Notes: a model not told the origin generated them from the letters alone. A stretch of DNA of 64,000 nucleotides from Methylococcales bacterium (GCA_026398895.1 JAPLRZ010000063.1:1-64000), one strand, 5' to 3'. Numbered from the stretch's first letter, positions 22,839-58,469 are shown. Program-made: numbers and translations.

Positions 22839-23161
22839 TTTTCTAGGCTTTCAGCGCGGGGCGGGTTATTCAACCCGCTCCAGATATTTGAATTCTAGTA
22901 TAACGCTCAACACAATACCACAGCCAAAACGTTGCGACTGGGTATATACCCAGTCGCGCTTCGTTATCACGTCTTATGTATATTGTAGGGTATGCAAAAA
23001 GCAAGACAACCTTATATAAATGTGATATATGTATATTAATATTTTTTCTGTCTAAACCACTGCAAAATTCATGTGTCGCGGCACGTTTTTTGAAATATTC
23101 CTGTTCATCCCCTGATAGCGCGTTCAAGAAAACTTGACCACCACACATAACTATTTTAAAT

Positions 23162-24193
23162 ATGAATATCCCCCCTAAACAACCATCACAAGTTGTCCCG
23201 ACTAATACCACGGAGGAACTCATAATTGCGAACAAAGAACTAGCTTTTCAGAACGAAGAGAAGGAAAAGCGTGCAGAAGAACTTGTAATTGCGAACAAAG
23301 AACTAGCTTTTCAAAACAAAGAGAAAGGAAAGCGTGCAGAAGAACTTGTAATTGCGAACAAAGAACTAGCTTTTCAGAACAAAGAGAAAGGAAAGCGTGC
23401 AGAAGAACTTGTAATTGCGAACAAAGAACTAGCTTTTCAAAACAAAGAGAAAGGAAAGCGTGCAGAAGAACTTGTAATTGCGAACAAAGAACTAGCTTTT
23501 CAAAACAAAGAGAAAGGAAAGCGTGCAGAAGAACTCATAATTGCGAACAAAGAACTAGCTTTTCAAAACGAAGAGAAGGAAAAACGTGCAGAAGAACTTG
23601 TAATTGCGAATAAAAAATTGCAGAGTTCCCTTTTTCAAACTATTTCATTAGCAAGACAATTGGGTGAAATGCGAGATCCCTATACTGCTGGTCACGAAGA
23701 AAATGTCGGCAAATTAGCAGCAGCAATCAGTGCTGAACTTGGTTTTGACCTATATTCTCAAGAAGGTGTTCTTATCAGTGGCTATTTGCACGATCTTGGC
23801 AAAATAATCATCCCTACTGAAATTCTATCTAAGCCATCAAAGCTAAGTAATGAAGAATACGCTCTAATTAAGCTCCATGTTGAGGCAGGTTATGCCGTTC
23901 TCAAAGATGTTGATTTTCCATGGTCAATCGCACGGGCAGTGCGAGAACATCATGAGCGAATGGATGGAAGTGGCTATCCGTATGGTCTTAGTGGCGACGA
24001 AATTTCAATTGAAGGGCGAATTCTGAGTGTAGCGGATACAGTTGACGCAATAACATCACATCGCCCATATCGTGCAGGGTTAGGTATAGAAGCCGCACTC
24101 AATGAGATAAAGCGTGGTTCTGGAAGTCAATATGACACAACTGTAGTTAATGCCTGTATAAAATTATTTAGCGAAAAGGGTTACGAAATATAA
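23162..24193 (+). CDS. HD-GYP domain c-di-GMP phosphodiesterase with an N-terminal 21-residue tandem-repeat coiled-coil region
   Basis: The C-terminal HD-GYP signature: YLHDLGKIIIP (HD), HHERMDGSGYPYGL (GYP). The N-terminal half consists of about 6.6 tandem copies of EELVIANKELAFQNKEKGKRA. Confidence 0.7.
   Translation: MNIPPKQPSQVVPTNTTEELIIANKELAFQNEEKEKRAEELVIANKELAFQNKEKGKRAEELVIANKELAFQNKEKGKRAEELVIANKELAFQNKEKGKRAEELVIANKELAFQNKEKGKRAEELIIANKELAFQNEEKEKRAEELVIANKKLQSSLFQTISLARQLGEMRDPYTAGHEENVGKLAAAISAELGFDLYSQEGVLISGYLHDLGKIIIPTEILSKPSKLSNEEYALIKLHVEAGYAVLKDVDFPWSIARAVREHHERMDGSGYPYGLSGDEISIEGRILSVADTVDAITSHRPYRAGLGIEAALNEIKRGSGSQYDTTVVNACIKLFSEKGYEI
23213..23630 (+). repeat. In-frame tandem 63-bp DNA repeat (about 6.6 copies) inside the HD-GYP gene
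   Basis: The unit is gaagaacttgtaattgcgaacaaagaactagcttttcaaaacaaagagaaaggaaagcgtgca. Copies 2-5 are nearly identical at the DNA level. Copies 1 and 6 are a variant encoding ...NEEKEKRA. Confidence 0.85.
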
Positions 24194-24762: not shown

Positions 24763-25026
24763 TCATGAATTTTCTAGCGATAGTGTGCTGTCCTCGTCAC
24801 TAATCTCTTCTTCTGGTTCTTCTAGTTTTTCGCGTAATTCATAAAGATAGATGGTCGCACCTATGACTGCCGCAGCGCCGATGATGATATTTAACACAGG
24901 CAGTGTTAAGCCTAGCATAACAATTCCACCAAAACTCAACACCCCAAAACGTGCTGTTTTTAGCAAGTCTTTTTGTTCAACAAATAACAAGCCTTGGTTT
25001 TCTAATGGGTATGCCATAAATTCCAT
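24763..25026 (-). CDS. Hypothetical small membrane protein
   Basis: An 87-aa ORF with two predicted TM helices and an acidic C-terminus. No motif was recognised. It lies in a decayed region and may be spurious. Confidence 0.25.
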   Translation of the reverse strand: MEFMAYPLENQGLLFVEQKDLLKTARFGVLSFGGIVMLGLTLPVLNIIIGAAAVIGATIYLYELREKLEEPEEEISDEDSTLSLENS

Positions 25027-25229
25027 TGCTAAACAACACGACTATCATGCGTCAGGATGCGTACGCGCTTGCTAATCTGCGAGTAGGTTATGAGCAAAAA
25101 AATTACAGTGTTTATCTGTTTGCCAAAAACATCACCGACACCCATTATTACAGCTACAAAACCGACAGTGTGCGTGGCGTACCTAGCGATCCCAGATTGT
25201 TTGGTGTGCGTTTAGCGGTTAATTTTTGA
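25026..25229 (+). pseudogene. TonB-dependent outer-membrane receptor, C-terminal fragment only
   Basis: The translation ...ANLRVGYEQKNYSVYLFAKNITDTHYY...PRLFGVRLAVNF shows a TonB-dependent-receptor C-terminal beta-barrel signature with the terminal aromatic residue F. No upstream plug or barrel is present, so this is a gene remnant. Confidence 0.6.
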
Positions 25230-54411: not shown

Positions 54412-55755
54412 TTATGAAAAACTGCGATTGTAAATATGCCGTGCTAATTCAAATAGATAAGGTGATTTTTTACGGTAATCAAACTCTTCAAACGTTATTT
54501 CTACTTTTCCGATTCTTACATCTACACGCGGATAAGAGTTAATTAACCAAAACATTTGATAAAGTAATTTATCGAATAACACTTTATCTTTTCTAAGCTC
54601 TGAGTTACTTTCCTGAATATTATTGGCTAATGCTGGAAAGCGAAACGCATCTTTAATAATTTTTTCGCTGGCTACCTTATTTTGAAGGTTGCAATAAGCC
54701 TTTTTAATGTCCAGAGCAATTAATTTATTTTTATTTTGATTTTCAAAAGTTTCTTTTGTTAAATTCTCACCAGAAAACAGTCTAAATAGTATTTCTTCAT
54801 AAGTTTGCTTTACCTCGTCAAAATTAAACATAATCCGCATATTAATCATAAATAGGTAAGCGATTATTTGTTCATCAACAGCATTAAATACGGTTGAATT
54901 ATGCGTTATCCAGTTACGGGTGCTTTTCATAATCCACGCTAAACCTCTTATTTTTTTAGGTTCTGTCGCCTCCCATTCGTGCGTTAATGTTCTGATAAAG
55001 AGTTTGTACAAGGTGGATTTATCAACGGGTTCGCGCAAGGGTAAAAAATTTGCTAACACGTCTAAATAATTGTGACTATCTTCAAGGCTAATTTTCTTTT
55101 CAGATTCTTCAATAAAGCCATTAAATAACAGTTTGTTTTCAGTGTTGATTAGGTTTTTTAAACTGTGACAGGCTTCAATAATTCCGCGCCTTAATATTGC
55201 ATAAGAGGATTGTTGTGCTGTTAGCCAATCTCTTAGTTTTTCATAATCGGCATCGCTTTTTTCAAAAGCGGTGACTTTTGGCGTGTATATTTCAGTGCAT
55301 TTTTCTTCAAAACTTTTAAACGAATTCTTTTCACCTGTCATGAAACATATTCGTTCAGCAGGTACGCCTAAATGAATTAAATCGTTAAAAATATAAAAGC
55401 CGCCATTTTCGTGAAATTTACGTTTATCGGATAAGTAAGCGTCTGGAATAGGTGAATCAAACTGCTCCGCTGCAATATTATCTAAACGGATGTCAGAGAT
55501 AATGGTGTCTATTTCATGAGTTATTGAATGGGCTGCTTTAAAAGCAATGTAATCGAAATAATTACGGCATAAATAAATATTGTGTACGCTTTTTTGTTGT
55601 TCGCAGAATTTTTTTAAATCGGTGGGGCGTTTTATTAGATTTAATTCGTCTTCGTCCCAGTCATCAAAACTGAGCAGATTTTTAAACATCGATTCTAATG
55701 TGTCTGTGCCTGATGATAATGTGCCACCAAAGTCTTCAATCCATAATATATTCAT
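54412..55755 (-). CDS. REC-like receiver domain fused to an unknown approx. 290-aa C-terminal domain (candidate response-regulator-type effector)
   Basis: The N-terminus MNILWIEDFGG resembles REC strand 1 (ILIVDD). DTIISDIRLDN is positioned like the phospho-acceptor D strand, and ICFMTGE like the T/S strand. The C-terminal two-thirds is novel. The gene is strongly AT-rich and 4-nt overlap-coupled to the upstream kinase-like gene. Confidence 0.4.
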   Translation of the reverse strand: MNILWIEDFGGTLSSGTDTLESMFKNLLSFDDWDEDELNLIKRPTDLKKFCEQQKSVHNIYLCRNYFDYIAFKAAHSITHEIDTIISDIRLDNIAAEQFDSPIPDAYLSDKRKFHENGGFYIFNDLIHLGVPAERICFMTGEKNSFKSFEEKCTEIYTPKVTAFEKSDADYEKLRDWLTAQQSSYAILRRGIIEACHSLKNLINTENKLLFNGFIEESEKKISLEDSHNYLDVLANFLPLREPVDKSTLYKLFIRTLTHEWEATEPKKIRGLAWIMKSTRNWITHNSTVFNAVDEQIIAYLFMINMRIMFNFDEVKQTYEEILFRLFSGENLTKETFENQNKNKLIALDIKKAYCNLQNKVASEKIIKDAFRFPALANNIQESNSELRKDKVLFDKLLYQMFWLINSYPRVDVRIGKVEITFEEFDYRKKSPYLFELARHIYNRSFS

Positions 55756-58469
55756 GTGTTATCGCCTAATAATGATTTATGTAGTTTTAATTGTGCGGTA
55801 AAGTGTTGCTCTTCGGGTATGCAATTAAAATGCGCTTGGTCGCCTAATAATTCCATTAAGCGGTTAATAAACGCAATACCTTTGTGCGTACCTGCTAAAT
55901 TACTACTGGCGTTTGCATGGCAAGGATTTTTAACAGTGAAAATATAATTTTCTTCTATTAACTGCCAGCTAATTTGAATATGTCCTGTGCCGTTCCAATA
56001 TTTTAAGGCATTTAAAATTAATTCAGAGGTGATGGCGAATAATAGCGAAAATTTAACCTGATTGACACCAAAATTAGAGCAATTGGTTTCTTCTATGGCT
56101 ATTTCAATGCTATTAATACCATTAAGCCAGTCATAAAAAGTATTAATTCCATGATTATCGACATTAAGCGGTAAAACAGTTTCAATAAATGATTTTCGCA
56201 TGGATACAATTGATGCGGTTTCAGTGATATTTAACAGTTTTTCTAACTGGCTGGCATCACTCATAAAAATTATTCTATTTAATGATTGACGTAAAGCCGA
56301 GGCGATTACCCATTTTGGTGTTGCATCACCTGTATTATCGTTTTGCCACGCCAGTTTAAATTCTTGTGGATCATTAATAGATTGTTTAAAGGTATCTATT
56401 AAGCAATCCGTTAAAGACAACGTTGAAAATAAAGCGGCTATTTTATTAATCGCTTTATATTGTTTTTTATTTTTTTCGTAGTCTTCGCTACCTAATAAAC
56501 GAATGGCTTGTCTGAGTGATTCTGGGGCAGTGGCGAGGGCATTACGCATGGTGTGAGTGAAGAAAGAGAGCATTTCTTTTTCTTTTTCGTGTGCCATTTT
56601 GTAATATTTTTCTTTTTTTTGGATTTGTAATTCAAGTTGTTGGTTTTTTTCTTCTAACTCTGCATTTAATTTTCTAAGCTCCTTATTTTGTTCTTTTATC
56701 GTTATTCTTTGTTCAGCATATTCACAGCTATAACTTCCTACATCCCAGTCTTCGGCAATAACCTGTATTGCTTCATCCTTGCGTCCTTTATCAAGCAGAT
56801 AATCAGCTTTTTCCTTACCTTCAAGTTTTGACTCATAATCTTTCTCTTCACAATAATAAGAGAATGCTGTTTTATATGGGAACGCTATAGAATCTTTTTT
56901 TTCTATTATATCTTCATCAATCTGCTGTTGATAAAATATCACTTTATCTAAGTCTTTTTCAACAATTTTACCTTCTGCGTAATAACGAGATAATTGCAAA
57001 GAAGCTATACTTTTAATATCAGGATAATATGACATATTATAGTCTCTTTCTATTTCATCGTCTTTTTCACCGCTATTTTCAAAAGCTTTTTCATAATATG
57101 CAAAAGCAAGCGCATCATTTTTTTTAACATGATTACCTAATCGATAATAATCTGCTAAACGGATATAAGCATTGACAGATCCATATTCAGCGGCTTTGAT
57201 ATACAAGTCAATTATTTTTTGCTCACTTATTTCTAGTTCGCTATTATCACTTTCAAAGCCGTAAGCGAAATTTAAATAAATATGAGCTAATCTATATTTG
57301 TCAGATTTTTCTTGCGTGAGCGATTTTTCCAGCCATTCTAAAGCCAGTATTCGATTTTTTTTAACCTTTATACCTTCAAAATAAACTTCGGCTAATAAAT
57401 AATATGCTTCAATATCTCCTTGTTCTGCTTTTTTTTCAAACCATTGTAATTCTTCTTCTAAATTTTCATTTTCTTTATCGTGACGAAAATATTGATATAG
57501 TTTATCTTCTGCGCAACTATAATAATCATTCAGTTTAAATCCTGCTTGAGTGTCTTTTTGTTCATCCAATTTTTTAAGCAACTCAAAACCAAGTTTTATA
57601 TTTTTCTCAATGCCCATTCCCTTGAGATAACAATCAGCTAACAAATATTGCGCTTTAATCTTATCTTGTTCAGCAAGTTTATTAAGCAACTCAAAACCAA
57701 GTTCTGGATTTTTTTCAATACCGATACCATTAAGATAACAATCGGCTAACTCATATTGAGCTTCAATATTTCCCCGTTCAGCGGATTTTTTACACCATTC
57801 AAAACCAAGCACTGAATCTACATCCGTACCTTTACCGTAAAAATAACACATGGCTAATTCATATTGCGCTTCAATATGTCCTTGTCCAGCCACTTTTTTA
57901 AACCAATCAAAAGCAAGCTCTGGATTTTTTTCAATATCAAAACCATACAGATAATCTATGGCTATCGAATATTGAGCATCAATATTCCCTTGTTCAGCCG
58001 CTTTGTTTAGCCATTCAAAAGCAAGCCCCAGATTTTTTTCAACCCCCCAACCATATTTATAATTTAAACTCGTTCTATATTGAGAAGCAGCATCTTCTAA
58101 TTCAGCCGCTTTTTTAATCCATGCAAAATATAATTCATCGTTATTTTGTTTTTTATAATAAACTCCAATTGCCCTATAAGCTTTGGAAAACTTAGGATTT
58201 AATTGAATAGATTTATTAAAATCGCCTAAAGCAAGTTCATATTTTTCCATATTAAAATAATAACGACCACGCTCAAAATAAGCTTCGTAACCATTAGCAT
58301 CTAATTGAATAGCTTGCATCAATACTTTTAGAGCAAAATCGAATTTTTTTTGTTCAAGACAATCACGCCCTAACTTAACAAGCTCTGCATAACTTCTAAT
58401 TTCTACTTTTTTTGCCACTTCGTTTTGTGCTGTTTGTTCTTTTAAATCTGTCATGGCTTTATCATCCAA
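55752..58469 (-). CDS. Sel1/TPR-repeat protein fused to a histidine-kinase-like module (coiled coil + H-box + HATPase_c-like C-terminus)
   Basis: About 10 Sel1-like repeats (AxxWfxKAAEQGnxxAQYxLAxxYxxGxGxEKN) in residues about 30-470. A coiled coil (ELRKLNAELEEKNQQLELQIQKKEK). An H-box-like FFTHTMRNALA. C-terminal G-box-like ELILNALKYW...GTHKGIAFINRLMELLG. Confidence 0.5.
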   Translation of the reverse strand: MDDKAMTDLKEQTAQNEVAKKVEIRSYAELVKLGRDCLEQKKFDFALKVLMQAIQLDANGYEAYFERGRYYFNMEKYELALGDFNKSIQLNPKFSKAYRAIGVYYKKQNNDELYFAWIKKAAELEDAASQYRTSLNYKYGWGVEKNLGLAFEWLNKAAEQGNIDAQYSIAIDYLYGFDIEKNPELAFDWFKKVAGQGHIEAQYELAMCYFYGKGTDVDSVLGFEWCKKSAERGNIEAQYELADCYLNGIGIEKNPELGFELLNKLAEQDKIKAQYLLADCYLKGMGIEKNIKLGFELLKKLDEQKDTQAGFKLNDYYSCAEDKLYQYFRHDKENENLEEELQWFEKKAEQGDIEAYYLLAEVYFEGIKVKKNRILALEWLEKSLTQEKSDKYRLAHIYLNFAYGFESDNSELEISEQKIIDLYIKAAEYGSVNAYIRLADYYRLGNHVKKNDALAFAYYEKAFENSGEKDDEIERDYNMSYYPDIKSIASLQLSRYYAEGKIVEKDLDKVIFYQQQIDEDIIEKKDSIAFPYKTAFSYYCEEKDYESKLEGKEKADYLLDKGRKDEAIQVIAEDWDVGSYSCEYAEQRITIKEQNKELRKLNAELEEKNQQLELQIQKKEKYYKMAHEKEKEMLSFFTHTMRNALATAPESLRQAIRLLGSEDYEKNKKQYKAINKIAALFSTLSLTDCLIDTFKQSINDPQEFKLAWQNDNTGDATPKWVIASALRQSLNRIIFMSDASQLEKLLNITETASIVSMRKSFIETVLPLNVDNHGINTFYDWLNGINSIEIAIEETNCSNFGVNQVKFSLLFAITSELILNALKYWNGTGHIQISWQLIEENYIFTVKNPCHANASSNLAGTHKGIAFINRLMELLGDQAHFNCIPEEQHFTAQLKLHKSLLGDNT

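Follow-up and report, generated by a model that had tools for sequence, protein, structure and literature searches.

The stretch of DNA considered here, referred to as the window, covers 64,000 nt of a contig from a Methylococcales bacterium (GCA_026398895.1, JAPLRZ010000063.1:1-64000). At 23162-24193 on the plus strand it carries an open reading frame (ORF) of 343 aa, in which a tandem array of 63-nt units, each encoding 21 residues, precedes an HD-GYP domain. We consider it probable that the product is a cytoplasmic HD-GYP phosphodiesterase of cyclic di-GMP (c-di-GMP) with a dimerising, phase-preserving helical stalk, and that this stalk evolves by whole units. In such a protein, two chains would pair via their stalks as a parallel, marginally stable coiled coil, and this pairing would determine how the two catalytic domains dimerise and lie relative to each other, and through this their activity. 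Whole units of about 3.1 nm each would be added or removed by recombination or replication slippage among the 63-nt units, without disturbing the reading frame or the helical phase. The array is joined in heptad register to the output domain's first helix.

Anatomy and age of the repeat array

Tandem Repeats Finder (TRF) places the array at 23216-23614, with a period of 63, 6.3 copies, 94% matches, no indels and a score of 700. It is the strongest tandem repeat anywhere in the window, and no other comes close. Slicing in phase from 23213 yields six full 63-nt units (23213-23590) and a partial seventh, which matches for 26 nt (23591-23616) and then diverges into a junction helix. Units 2, 4 and 5 are identical, unit 3 is one synonymous A>G apart, and all four encode EELVIANKELAFQNKEKGKRA (type B). 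Units 1 and 6 encode EELIIANKELAFQNEEKEKRA (types A and A'). They stand 6-7 nt from the central units and 3 nt from each other, the latter all synonymous. The unit order is A-B-B-B-B-A'-B(partial), with only synonymous differences within a type, and the whole array lies in frame inside the ORF. An earlier note on this DNA had described nearly perfect in-frame 63-bp tandem repeats in an HD-GYP gene, with essentially identical central copies and a variant copy at each end, and TRF, unit slicing, the ORF and the HD_5 domain match all bear this out. Its extent (23213-23630) and its 6.6 copies were slightly generous; 6.3-6.4 copies, with the matching part ending at 23616, are more accurate. No ORF of at least 60 aa in the ORF list crosses the array in any other frame. 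One minus-strand coding alternative, a 121-aa ORF at 22870-23235, overlaps the gene start only and was rejected. The features of the gene are as follows.

23162-24193, plus strand: HD-GYP gene, 343 aa, stop codon included in the coordinates (ORF list; product 100% identical to P0001)
23162-23212, plus strand: unique N-terminal 17 residues, MNIPPKQPSQVVPTNTT, polar and predicted to be disordered (predicted local distance difference test, pLDDT, <50 for residues 1-15)
23213-23275, plus strand: repeat unit 1, variant type A, EELIIANKELAFQNEEKEKRA (unit slicing)
23276-23527, plus strand: repeat units 2-5, type B, EELVIANKELAFQNKEKGKRA, the recently amplified block (unit slicing, 80-array comparison)
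23528-23590, plus strand: repeat unit 6, variant type A' (unit slicing)
23591-23616, plus strand: partial unit 7, start of a type B unit, EELVIANK, running on as the junction helix (unit slicing)
23210-23674, plus strand: single predicted alpha-helix, residues 17-171, array plus first HD-GYP helix (AlphaFold2, hydrophobicity spectrum)
23657-24145, plus strand: HD-GYP catalytic domain, residues 166-328 (Pfam HD_5, PDB 4mcw, Foldseek 9rbz)
23789-23794, plus strand: HD dyad, within the HD-GYP domain
23948-23980, plus strand: HHERMDGSGYP motif, within the HD-GYP domain
22933-22958, plus strand: GC-rich hairpin with an 11-bp stem, after the upstream DHODH-like gene (terminator-like scan, a consensus match only)

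How recent the amplification is can be judged from a comparison of 80 indel-free arrays of at least three units, taken from the window, its relatives and a metagenome sample. The median TRF match of these arrays is 82% (range 71-96%), and an adjacent pair of units no more than 1 nt apart occurs in 11 of them. The window array holds the longest run of near-identical units (four) and ranks first of the 80. Its units differ pairwise by 3.5 nt per 63 on average (median 12.6), the lowest mean among arrays of at least five units. The near-identical B run with its purely synonymous differences is consistent with the B unit having expanded very recently, and the recent amplification of the central copies proposed earlier is thereby upheld. 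Unequal exchange or replication slippage is the likely cause.

The catalytic domain

The ORF is identical to a database protein annotated as an HD-GYP domain-containing protein from a metagenome-assembled genome (MAG) of a Methylococcales bacterium (P0001). Residues 166-328 match Pfam HD_5 (PF13487) with 133.4 bits (cutoff 27.2; E 8.6e-39). Sequence matches of the catalytic domain in the PDB include PmGH (4mcw, E 8.5e-33), V-cGAP3, DvhD and PA4781. The predicted fold, with pLDDT >90 across the HD-GYP domain in AlphaFold2, is matched by Foldseek to c-di-GMP-bound DvhD (9rbz, E 2.8e-15, target template modelling score 0.84) and also to 4mcw and 4r8z. Thirty homologues (alignment A3) share H178, H210-D211, H239, H263-H264-E265, G269, G271-Y272-P273 and D292 without exception, and the invariant metal-ligand and GYP residues align to those of PmGH. 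In the DPYTAGH motif, the Tyr aligns with PmGH E185, the position of the third-metal Glu or Asp, so that the protein falls outside the trinuclear subclass. According to an HD-GYP survey paper, enzymes without the third-metal Glu form a binuclear class and often halt at pGpG. On these residues, the window protein is predicted to have a catalytically intact HD-GYP domain of the two-metal (binuclear) class. The PDB matches also include 5z7c, and some HD-GYP proteins use cyclic GMP-AMP (cGAMP) instead of c-di-GMP.

Pfam and NCBIfam profile searches detected no sensor, receiver or other second domain in the protein. NCBIfam matches to NosR-family, arcadin-3, Cas3 and SspJ models were rejected, being far under their cutoffs or confined to the HD region or the repeat. 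Neither a signal peptide nor a membrane segment is present (maximal 19-residue Kyte-Doolittle mean 0.99), and the protein is accordingly predicted to be cytoplasmic.

A predicted helical stalk in heptad register

AlphaFold2, run on a monomer with a 30-sequence alignment without the closest relative (L001, below), predicts one uninterrupted helix for residues 17-171 with pLDDT 65-90. This helix runs straight into the catalytic domain and would be about 23 nm long, calculated at 1.5 A per residue; the stalk makes up the N-terminal 40% of the protein. The hydrophobicity spectrum peaks at a period of 7.0, with a power of 45 at 3.5 against 3 at 3.6. The last Asn anchor of the window array stands 21 residues, i.e., three heptads, ahead of the RDPYTAGH motif. 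The earlier note had called this region the sensor half of the protein. This name finds no support: no sensor domain was detected, and a single continuous helix is predicted across the region; the model points to a stalk rather than a ligand-binding sensor. Its description of the unit as a three-heptad, 21-residue coiled-coil segment stands as far as helix and heptads are concerned, and the unit is best called a helical segment of coiled-coil type. A motif ExxxSxxRxxxQxxxD, which we take to be that of the RsiG-type c-di-GMP-binding coiled coils, is absent from the unit, and this candidate was rejected.

Heptad phase is kept across the whole repeat family described below. From one Asn anchor to the next, 1,997 of 2,033 spacings (98%) are multiples of 7, as the heptad periodicity of a canonical coiled coil demands, and these include spacings other than the unit length, namely 14 (89 cases), 28 (21), 35 (15) and 7 (12). 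Since these non-unit spacings are also multiples of 7, duplication of units cannot by itself account for the preserved heptad phase. Counted from the last Asn, the phospho-accepting His follows after 12+7n residues in 92 of 109 kinases, and the RDxxTxxH motif of HD-GYP proteins after 21 or 28 residues in 32 of 65 cases and after any multiple of 7 in 38 of 65. By these distances, the arrays are in heptad phase with the output domain. Because helix 1 of the DHp domain is a parallel dimeric element, a parallel homodimeric stalk would be the most economical model. Among the few exceptions to the multiple-of-7 rule are P0021, P0026 and P0028 (alignment A1, columns 219-239), which have a 5-residue insertion (…ELVIAK-LVIANKEL…) near the array end that would break the heptad phase.

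The register within the unit can be read from the S-helix, a signalling connector with Asn at heptad position 'a' and the Arg of its ERT signature at 'd' (PMC1592074). Canonical ERT S-helices follow the arrays in several kinases, and in seven proteins the ERT Arg lies at last-Asn+24, sharing its heptad position with the unit's Leu3 and Lys10. If the ERT Arg occupies 'd', this distance of 24 puts the unit Asn at 'a'. Applied to the whole unit, the S-helix register gives Asn, Asn and Ala at 'a' and Leu, Lys and Leu at 'd'.

The 21-residue repeat family

A search with the whole protein returned thousands of matches, many of which have only the repeat in common with it. These repeat-only matches are Bacteroidota histidine kinases, and GAF/HD-GYP, GGDEF/HD-GYP, cyclase and PAS proteins. 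A query of only the 140-aa repeat matched 1,614 representatives of 50%-identity clusters at E<=1e-3, 385 of them at E<=1e-30. From 1,743 units, the consensus is A-E-L-[IV]-I-A-N-K-E-L-A-F-Q-N-x-E-K-E-K-R-A (AELxIANKELAFQNEEKEKRA). Unit positions that were not used for unit finding are 83-97% conserved. Lys10 is 97% conserved, and three positions expected to face outward are comparably so (Gln6 0.93, Glu9 0.95, Arg13 0.97). Arrays of 2 to about 20 units occur in bacterial signalling proteins, mostly histidine kinases, and also in HD-GYP, GGDEF, EAL, cyclase, PAS and GAF proteins.

When metagenome contigs were scanned for the peptide ANKELAFQN, at least 120 loci matched, and 94 array-bearing ORFs were drawn from these. 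Among the matches listed, their domains are distributed as follows.

HisKA: 65 of 94 ORFs
PAS: 34 of 94 ORFs
REC: 18 of 94 ORFs
GGDEF: 5 of 94 ORFs
HD_5: 3 of 94 ORFs
EAL: 2 of 94 ORFs
CHASE3: 2 of 94 ORFs

By these counts, the module goes mainly with kinases, and with HD-GYP in a minority of cases. Profile searches of Pfam and NCBIfam turned up no model for the unit. A full-text literature search with peptide strings of the unit found no paper, a keyword search returned the S-helix paper and linker-engineering reviews only, and the words 'coiled' and 'repeat' occur nowhere in the text of an HD-GYP architecture survey. The unit belongs to a widespread repeat family that, judged by these searches, is apparently unnamed.

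Several relatives carry precomputed labels of PH_SLA1 (PF24081). Such matches occur in P0002, P0004, P0008 and P0069 and in 16 of the 94 ORFs (alignment A4), with whole-protein E-values down to 3e-14. None of them reaches significance over any one domain stretch, and they turn up on array proteins that are otherwise unrelated; we treated them as cross-matches, and the labels are probably false positives.

Variants of the arrangement were also seen. In the cluster of P0008, P0048, P0061 and P0065, 21-residue units alternate with 14-residue units, ELVIANEEKAKRAA, which are without the 'LAFQNEE' heptad, and alleles of this sub-family differ in 7- and 14-aa steps. At 9 of about 120 short metagenome loci, among the matches listed, two separate array-bearing genes lie close together (L092, L107, L116, L131, L141, L157, L181, L188 and L198); they are often adjacent, with very different unit numbers. 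In L001, directly upstream of the closest HD-GYP homologue (by L001:5896-6597), a GGDEF protein is encoded at L001:4802-5752 on the plus strand. Its N-terminus consists of a different 21-aa/63-nt tandem repeat, LSEATLHEVTEQVKQGKENLR, in 5.4 copies with 85% matches. Stalks built from three-heptad repeats would thus seem to recur on c-di-GMP enzymes, and to come from more than one sequence family.

Copy number in relatives

The species of the window is represented once: its 90%-identity cluster has one member, and the contig index holds no exact match to the protein. In a scan of a genome collection, the closest relative by catalytic domain is L001, a Methylococcaceae MAG, at 73% identity. Its protein of 233 aa has 1.3 units, and its neighbours differ from those of the window. 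Most other close relatives by catalytic domain have no array.

Among proteins that do carry arrays, length differs by whole units. Between proteins with 97-100% identity, indels of 21 aa are found at three separate positions of the array. Of the ten HD-GYP-rich 90%-identity clusters, eight have members whose lengths form a ladder of 21-aa steps while both termini stay conserved, for example 334/355/376/418/439/460/481 aa and 238/259/280/301 aa, and the other two are constant in length. Steps of 7 aa are seen in the sub-family that mixes 14- and 21-residue units. Most kinase clusters keep one length, though one has 506 against 485 aa, and a GGDEF/HD-GYP cluster has 7 against 9 units. At one locus of a Nitrotoga-like relative (L081-L087), the HD-GYP gene is flanked on one side by a PAS-GGDEF-EAL gene, transcribed divergently, and on the other by a gene for a phage-type integrase. 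Alleles of this polymorphic locus come from contigs of different samples, all short-read metagenome assemblies.

L085, L081-L083 and L086: same-locus alleles with 3, 9 and 10 units, flanks 99.6-100% identical
L087: more divergent same-locus allele with 7 units, flanks 98.8% identical

Exact internal repeats at this locus are no longer than 122 nt, under the assembly k of 141. The expectation that gain or loss of whole units keeps the frame is confirmed in close relatives by the 21-aa ladders and by the alleles with 99.6-100% identical flanks. Of the two observations that, taken together, would by the earlier note's own account refute its reading, one was made and the other was not: the motif is widely conserved and usually divergent in its DNA, but its copy number is not constant among relatives. 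The note had also spoken of a potentially phase- or antigenic-like protein, a reading that finds no support here. Classical contingency loci switch expression or frame through short tracts, whereas the units here are 63 nt and every change stays in frame, so that no on/off switching would result; antigenic variation requires a surface-exposed product, and this protein is predicted to be cytoplasmic. The length variation is best seen as an evolvable polymorphism, a 'tuning knob', not a programmed phase-variation switch.

Weighing of the explanations

Several points weigh against the dimeric, length-variable stalk that we favour. Copy-number variation at the window locus itself is extrapolated from relatives, and the shortest allele at the Nitrotoga-like locus (L085) is also what assembly collapse would be expected to produce, so that part of the variation may be artefactual. 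We infer the oligomeric state, the parallel orientation, the mutational mechanism and any effect of unit number on enzyme activity. The stalk helix was modelled as a monomer. When the repeat alone was searched against the PDB, no chain containing it was found, and the best match was a designed coiled coil with E 1.6. The predicted core is unusually polar (N, N and A at 'a'; L, K and L at 'd'), the conserved Ile and Phe sit on an outward-facing position, and the 3.5-residue harmonic is weak beside the 7-residue one. With these three features a simple two-stranded coiled coil is not assured, and the stalk might instead form a higher-order bundle, bind a partner or behave in part as a single alpha-helix.

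A more mundane explanation is that the array is real and the number of its identical central units was mis-estimated by short-read assembly. The copy number does come from a single MAG contig, units 2, 4 and 5 are identical, and the array has exact internal repeats of up to 111 nt. However, it is the synonymous change in unit 3 and the A-type flanks that limit exact repeats to this length, which is under the usual final k of 127-141, so that an assembly at such k could resolve the window array. Similar arrays of 5-18 units have moreover been assembled in many independent contigs, and we regard a miscount as improbable. If the number of units is right, it might be argued that the array works as a contingency locus, in which copy number changes at high frequency within a population and generates subpopulations that differ in stalk length and c-di-GMP turnover, as a form of bet-hedging or a device akin to phase variation. 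Four identical or near-identical 63-nt units are a good substrate for slippage or unequal exchange, many length alleles exist in relatives, some of them between samples with identical flanks, and recently copied neighbouring units (no more than 1 nt apart) were found in 11 of the 80 arrays. But unit changes are always in frame and never turn the gene off, a cytoplasmic protein is under no antigenic pressure, two many-member clusters have a single length, and most kinase clusters are constant. Furthermore, classical contingency loci consist of 1-9-nt tracts, which recombine far more often than 63-nt units. A contingency function is decidedly improbable on this balance, and the preferred account remains a stalk whose length evolves by whole units.

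Other explanations concern what the stalk does. The conserved unit could be a recognition code by which different array-bearing proteins zip together, so that kinases, cyclases and phosphodiesterases are co-localised or cross-regulated. Outward positions (Gln6, Glu9, Arg13 and the outward Ile and Phe) are as conserved as the core, the same unit is found on many output types, and there are the nine loci with two array-bearing genes. Against heterotypic pairing, the 64-kb window has only one array gene, neighbouring paralogues differ widely in copy number and would form mismatched zippers, and the conservation may stem from recent spread and concerted evolution; to us, such a code is quite improbable. 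It is also conceivable that the stalk is itself the sensor, a marginally stable coiled coil that would melt or shift its register as temperature, ionic strength or pH change and would so switch the phosphodiesterase, with the number of units setting the threshold. No other input domain was detected, and the polar Asn and Lys in the core resemble the 'switch' constellation of the S-helix. This idea is purely inferential, though, and its probability is very low: arrays also occur downstream of PAS, GAF and CHASE3 sensors, where the role of a transmitter is required, and a third heptad rich in E, K and R should stabilise the helix rather than let it melt. A broader and tentative reading, which we think unlikely, takes all 'ANKELAFQ' arrays as an undescribed, mobile coiled-coil module of bacterial signalling that expands and contracts fast, whose unit number would tune the output of the attached kinase, cyclase or phosphodiesterase or diversify it among the members of a population, and whose unusually conserved outward residues would zip together different array proteins of one cell. 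If it were true, the window gene with its four freshly amplified units would be a snapshot of the expansion process.

Gene neighborhood

Upstream of the HD-GYP gene lie a gene for a nifJ-type pyruvate:ferredoxin oxidoreductase and a DHODH-like gene, a pair that ends in the hairpin at 22933-22958. Since this hairpin parts the HD-GYP gene from the nifJ-type operon, the gene looks monocistronic. Downstream, a stretch of gene remnants is followed by lspA-ileS. Between the HD-GYP gene and lspA, the segment 24200-25230 has short broken reading frames only and looks like decayed gene remnants. A 67-aa piece at 25026-25229 on the plus strand resembles the C-terminal end of a TonB-dependent receptor, and an 87-aa hydrophobic ORF lies on the minus strand at 24763-25026. 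Elsewhere in the window, a 108-nt tandem repeat (57558-58042, 4.5 copies, 74%) lies inside the ORF 55752-58469 on the minus strand. It encodes 36-residue Sel1-like repeats in a 905-aa protein whose C-terminal part looks like a histidine-kinase core.

Comparison with known systems

The novelty lies less in the window gene than in the repeat family that it revealed, variable-number S-helix-like stalks on signalling enzymes. This family is a gap in domain databases, where it draws only seemingly spurious PH_SLA1 matches, and the annotation 'HD-GYP domain protein' conceals a 20-nm, very recently amplified stalk.

The closest known relative in kind is the S-helix (Anantharaman, Balaji and Aravind 2006, PMC1592074). 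Like the arrays, it is a helical heptad connector that sits immediately before a histidine-kinase DHp, HD-GYP, GGDEF or cyclase domain and passes into the output helix, and like the unit, it has Asn at 'a' and a basic residue at 'd' after Glu at 'c' (ERT in the S-helix, EKE in the unit). Unlike the arrays, the S-helix comes as one module, about 40 residues or five heptads long, between two globular domains, and bears the ERT signature (PMC1592074). The array unit of 21 residues is without ERT, having E-K-E (or E-K-G, E-K-A) at the equivalent position, and is repeated 2 to about 20 times, often at the extreme N-terminus with nothing upstream, its copy number varying among close relatives. In the window protein, there are 6.4 x 21 residues and no upstream domain, and both the heptad continuity with the output helix and the Asn at 'a' agree with the S-helix. 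By its sequence, the unit looks like an iterated S-helix-type segment, though it fails the S-helix definition.

Characterised HD-GYP proteins, i.e., PmGH (4MCW), PA4781 (4R8Z), DvhD (9RBZ) and the RpfG-type REC-HD-GYP proteins, have the same catalytic domain by sequence and predicted fold. They have REC, PAS, GAF or other N-terminal input domains, whereas the window protein has the repeat stalk only, and it differs from the third-metal enzymes in the Tyr that replaces the third-metal Glu. Tandem iteration of a helical signalling module is also seen in poly-HAMP arrays, which lie between input and output. HAMP is a helix-connector-helix unit of about 50 residues that forms a four-helix bundle, and the Pfam search gave no HAMP profile match in the window protein. 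In streptococcal M and alpha-C proteins and the stalks of trimeric autotransporters, the number of in-frame coiled-coil repeats varies by strain through recombination. These proteins are secreted, surface-exposed and immune-selected, in contrast to the cytoplasmic enzyme predicted here.

How signals pass through helical linkers to kinase and c-di-GMP outputs is still debated, and has been probed mostly by engineered length series. In engineered sensor kinases, activity follows the length of the coiled-coil linker with heptad periodicity (PMC6798134; PMC11164954). Length steps of seven are tolerated or required there, and the natural arrays likewise vary almost only by sevens. The engineered linkers are laboratory series of a few residues in PAS- or LOV-kinase linkers, whereas the natural arrays use 21-residue units over 40-400 residues. 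With 2 to about 20 units and close strains that differ by whole units, the repeat family is a natural length series, and offers ready-made material on how stalk length and stability relate to phosphodiesterase or kinase activity.

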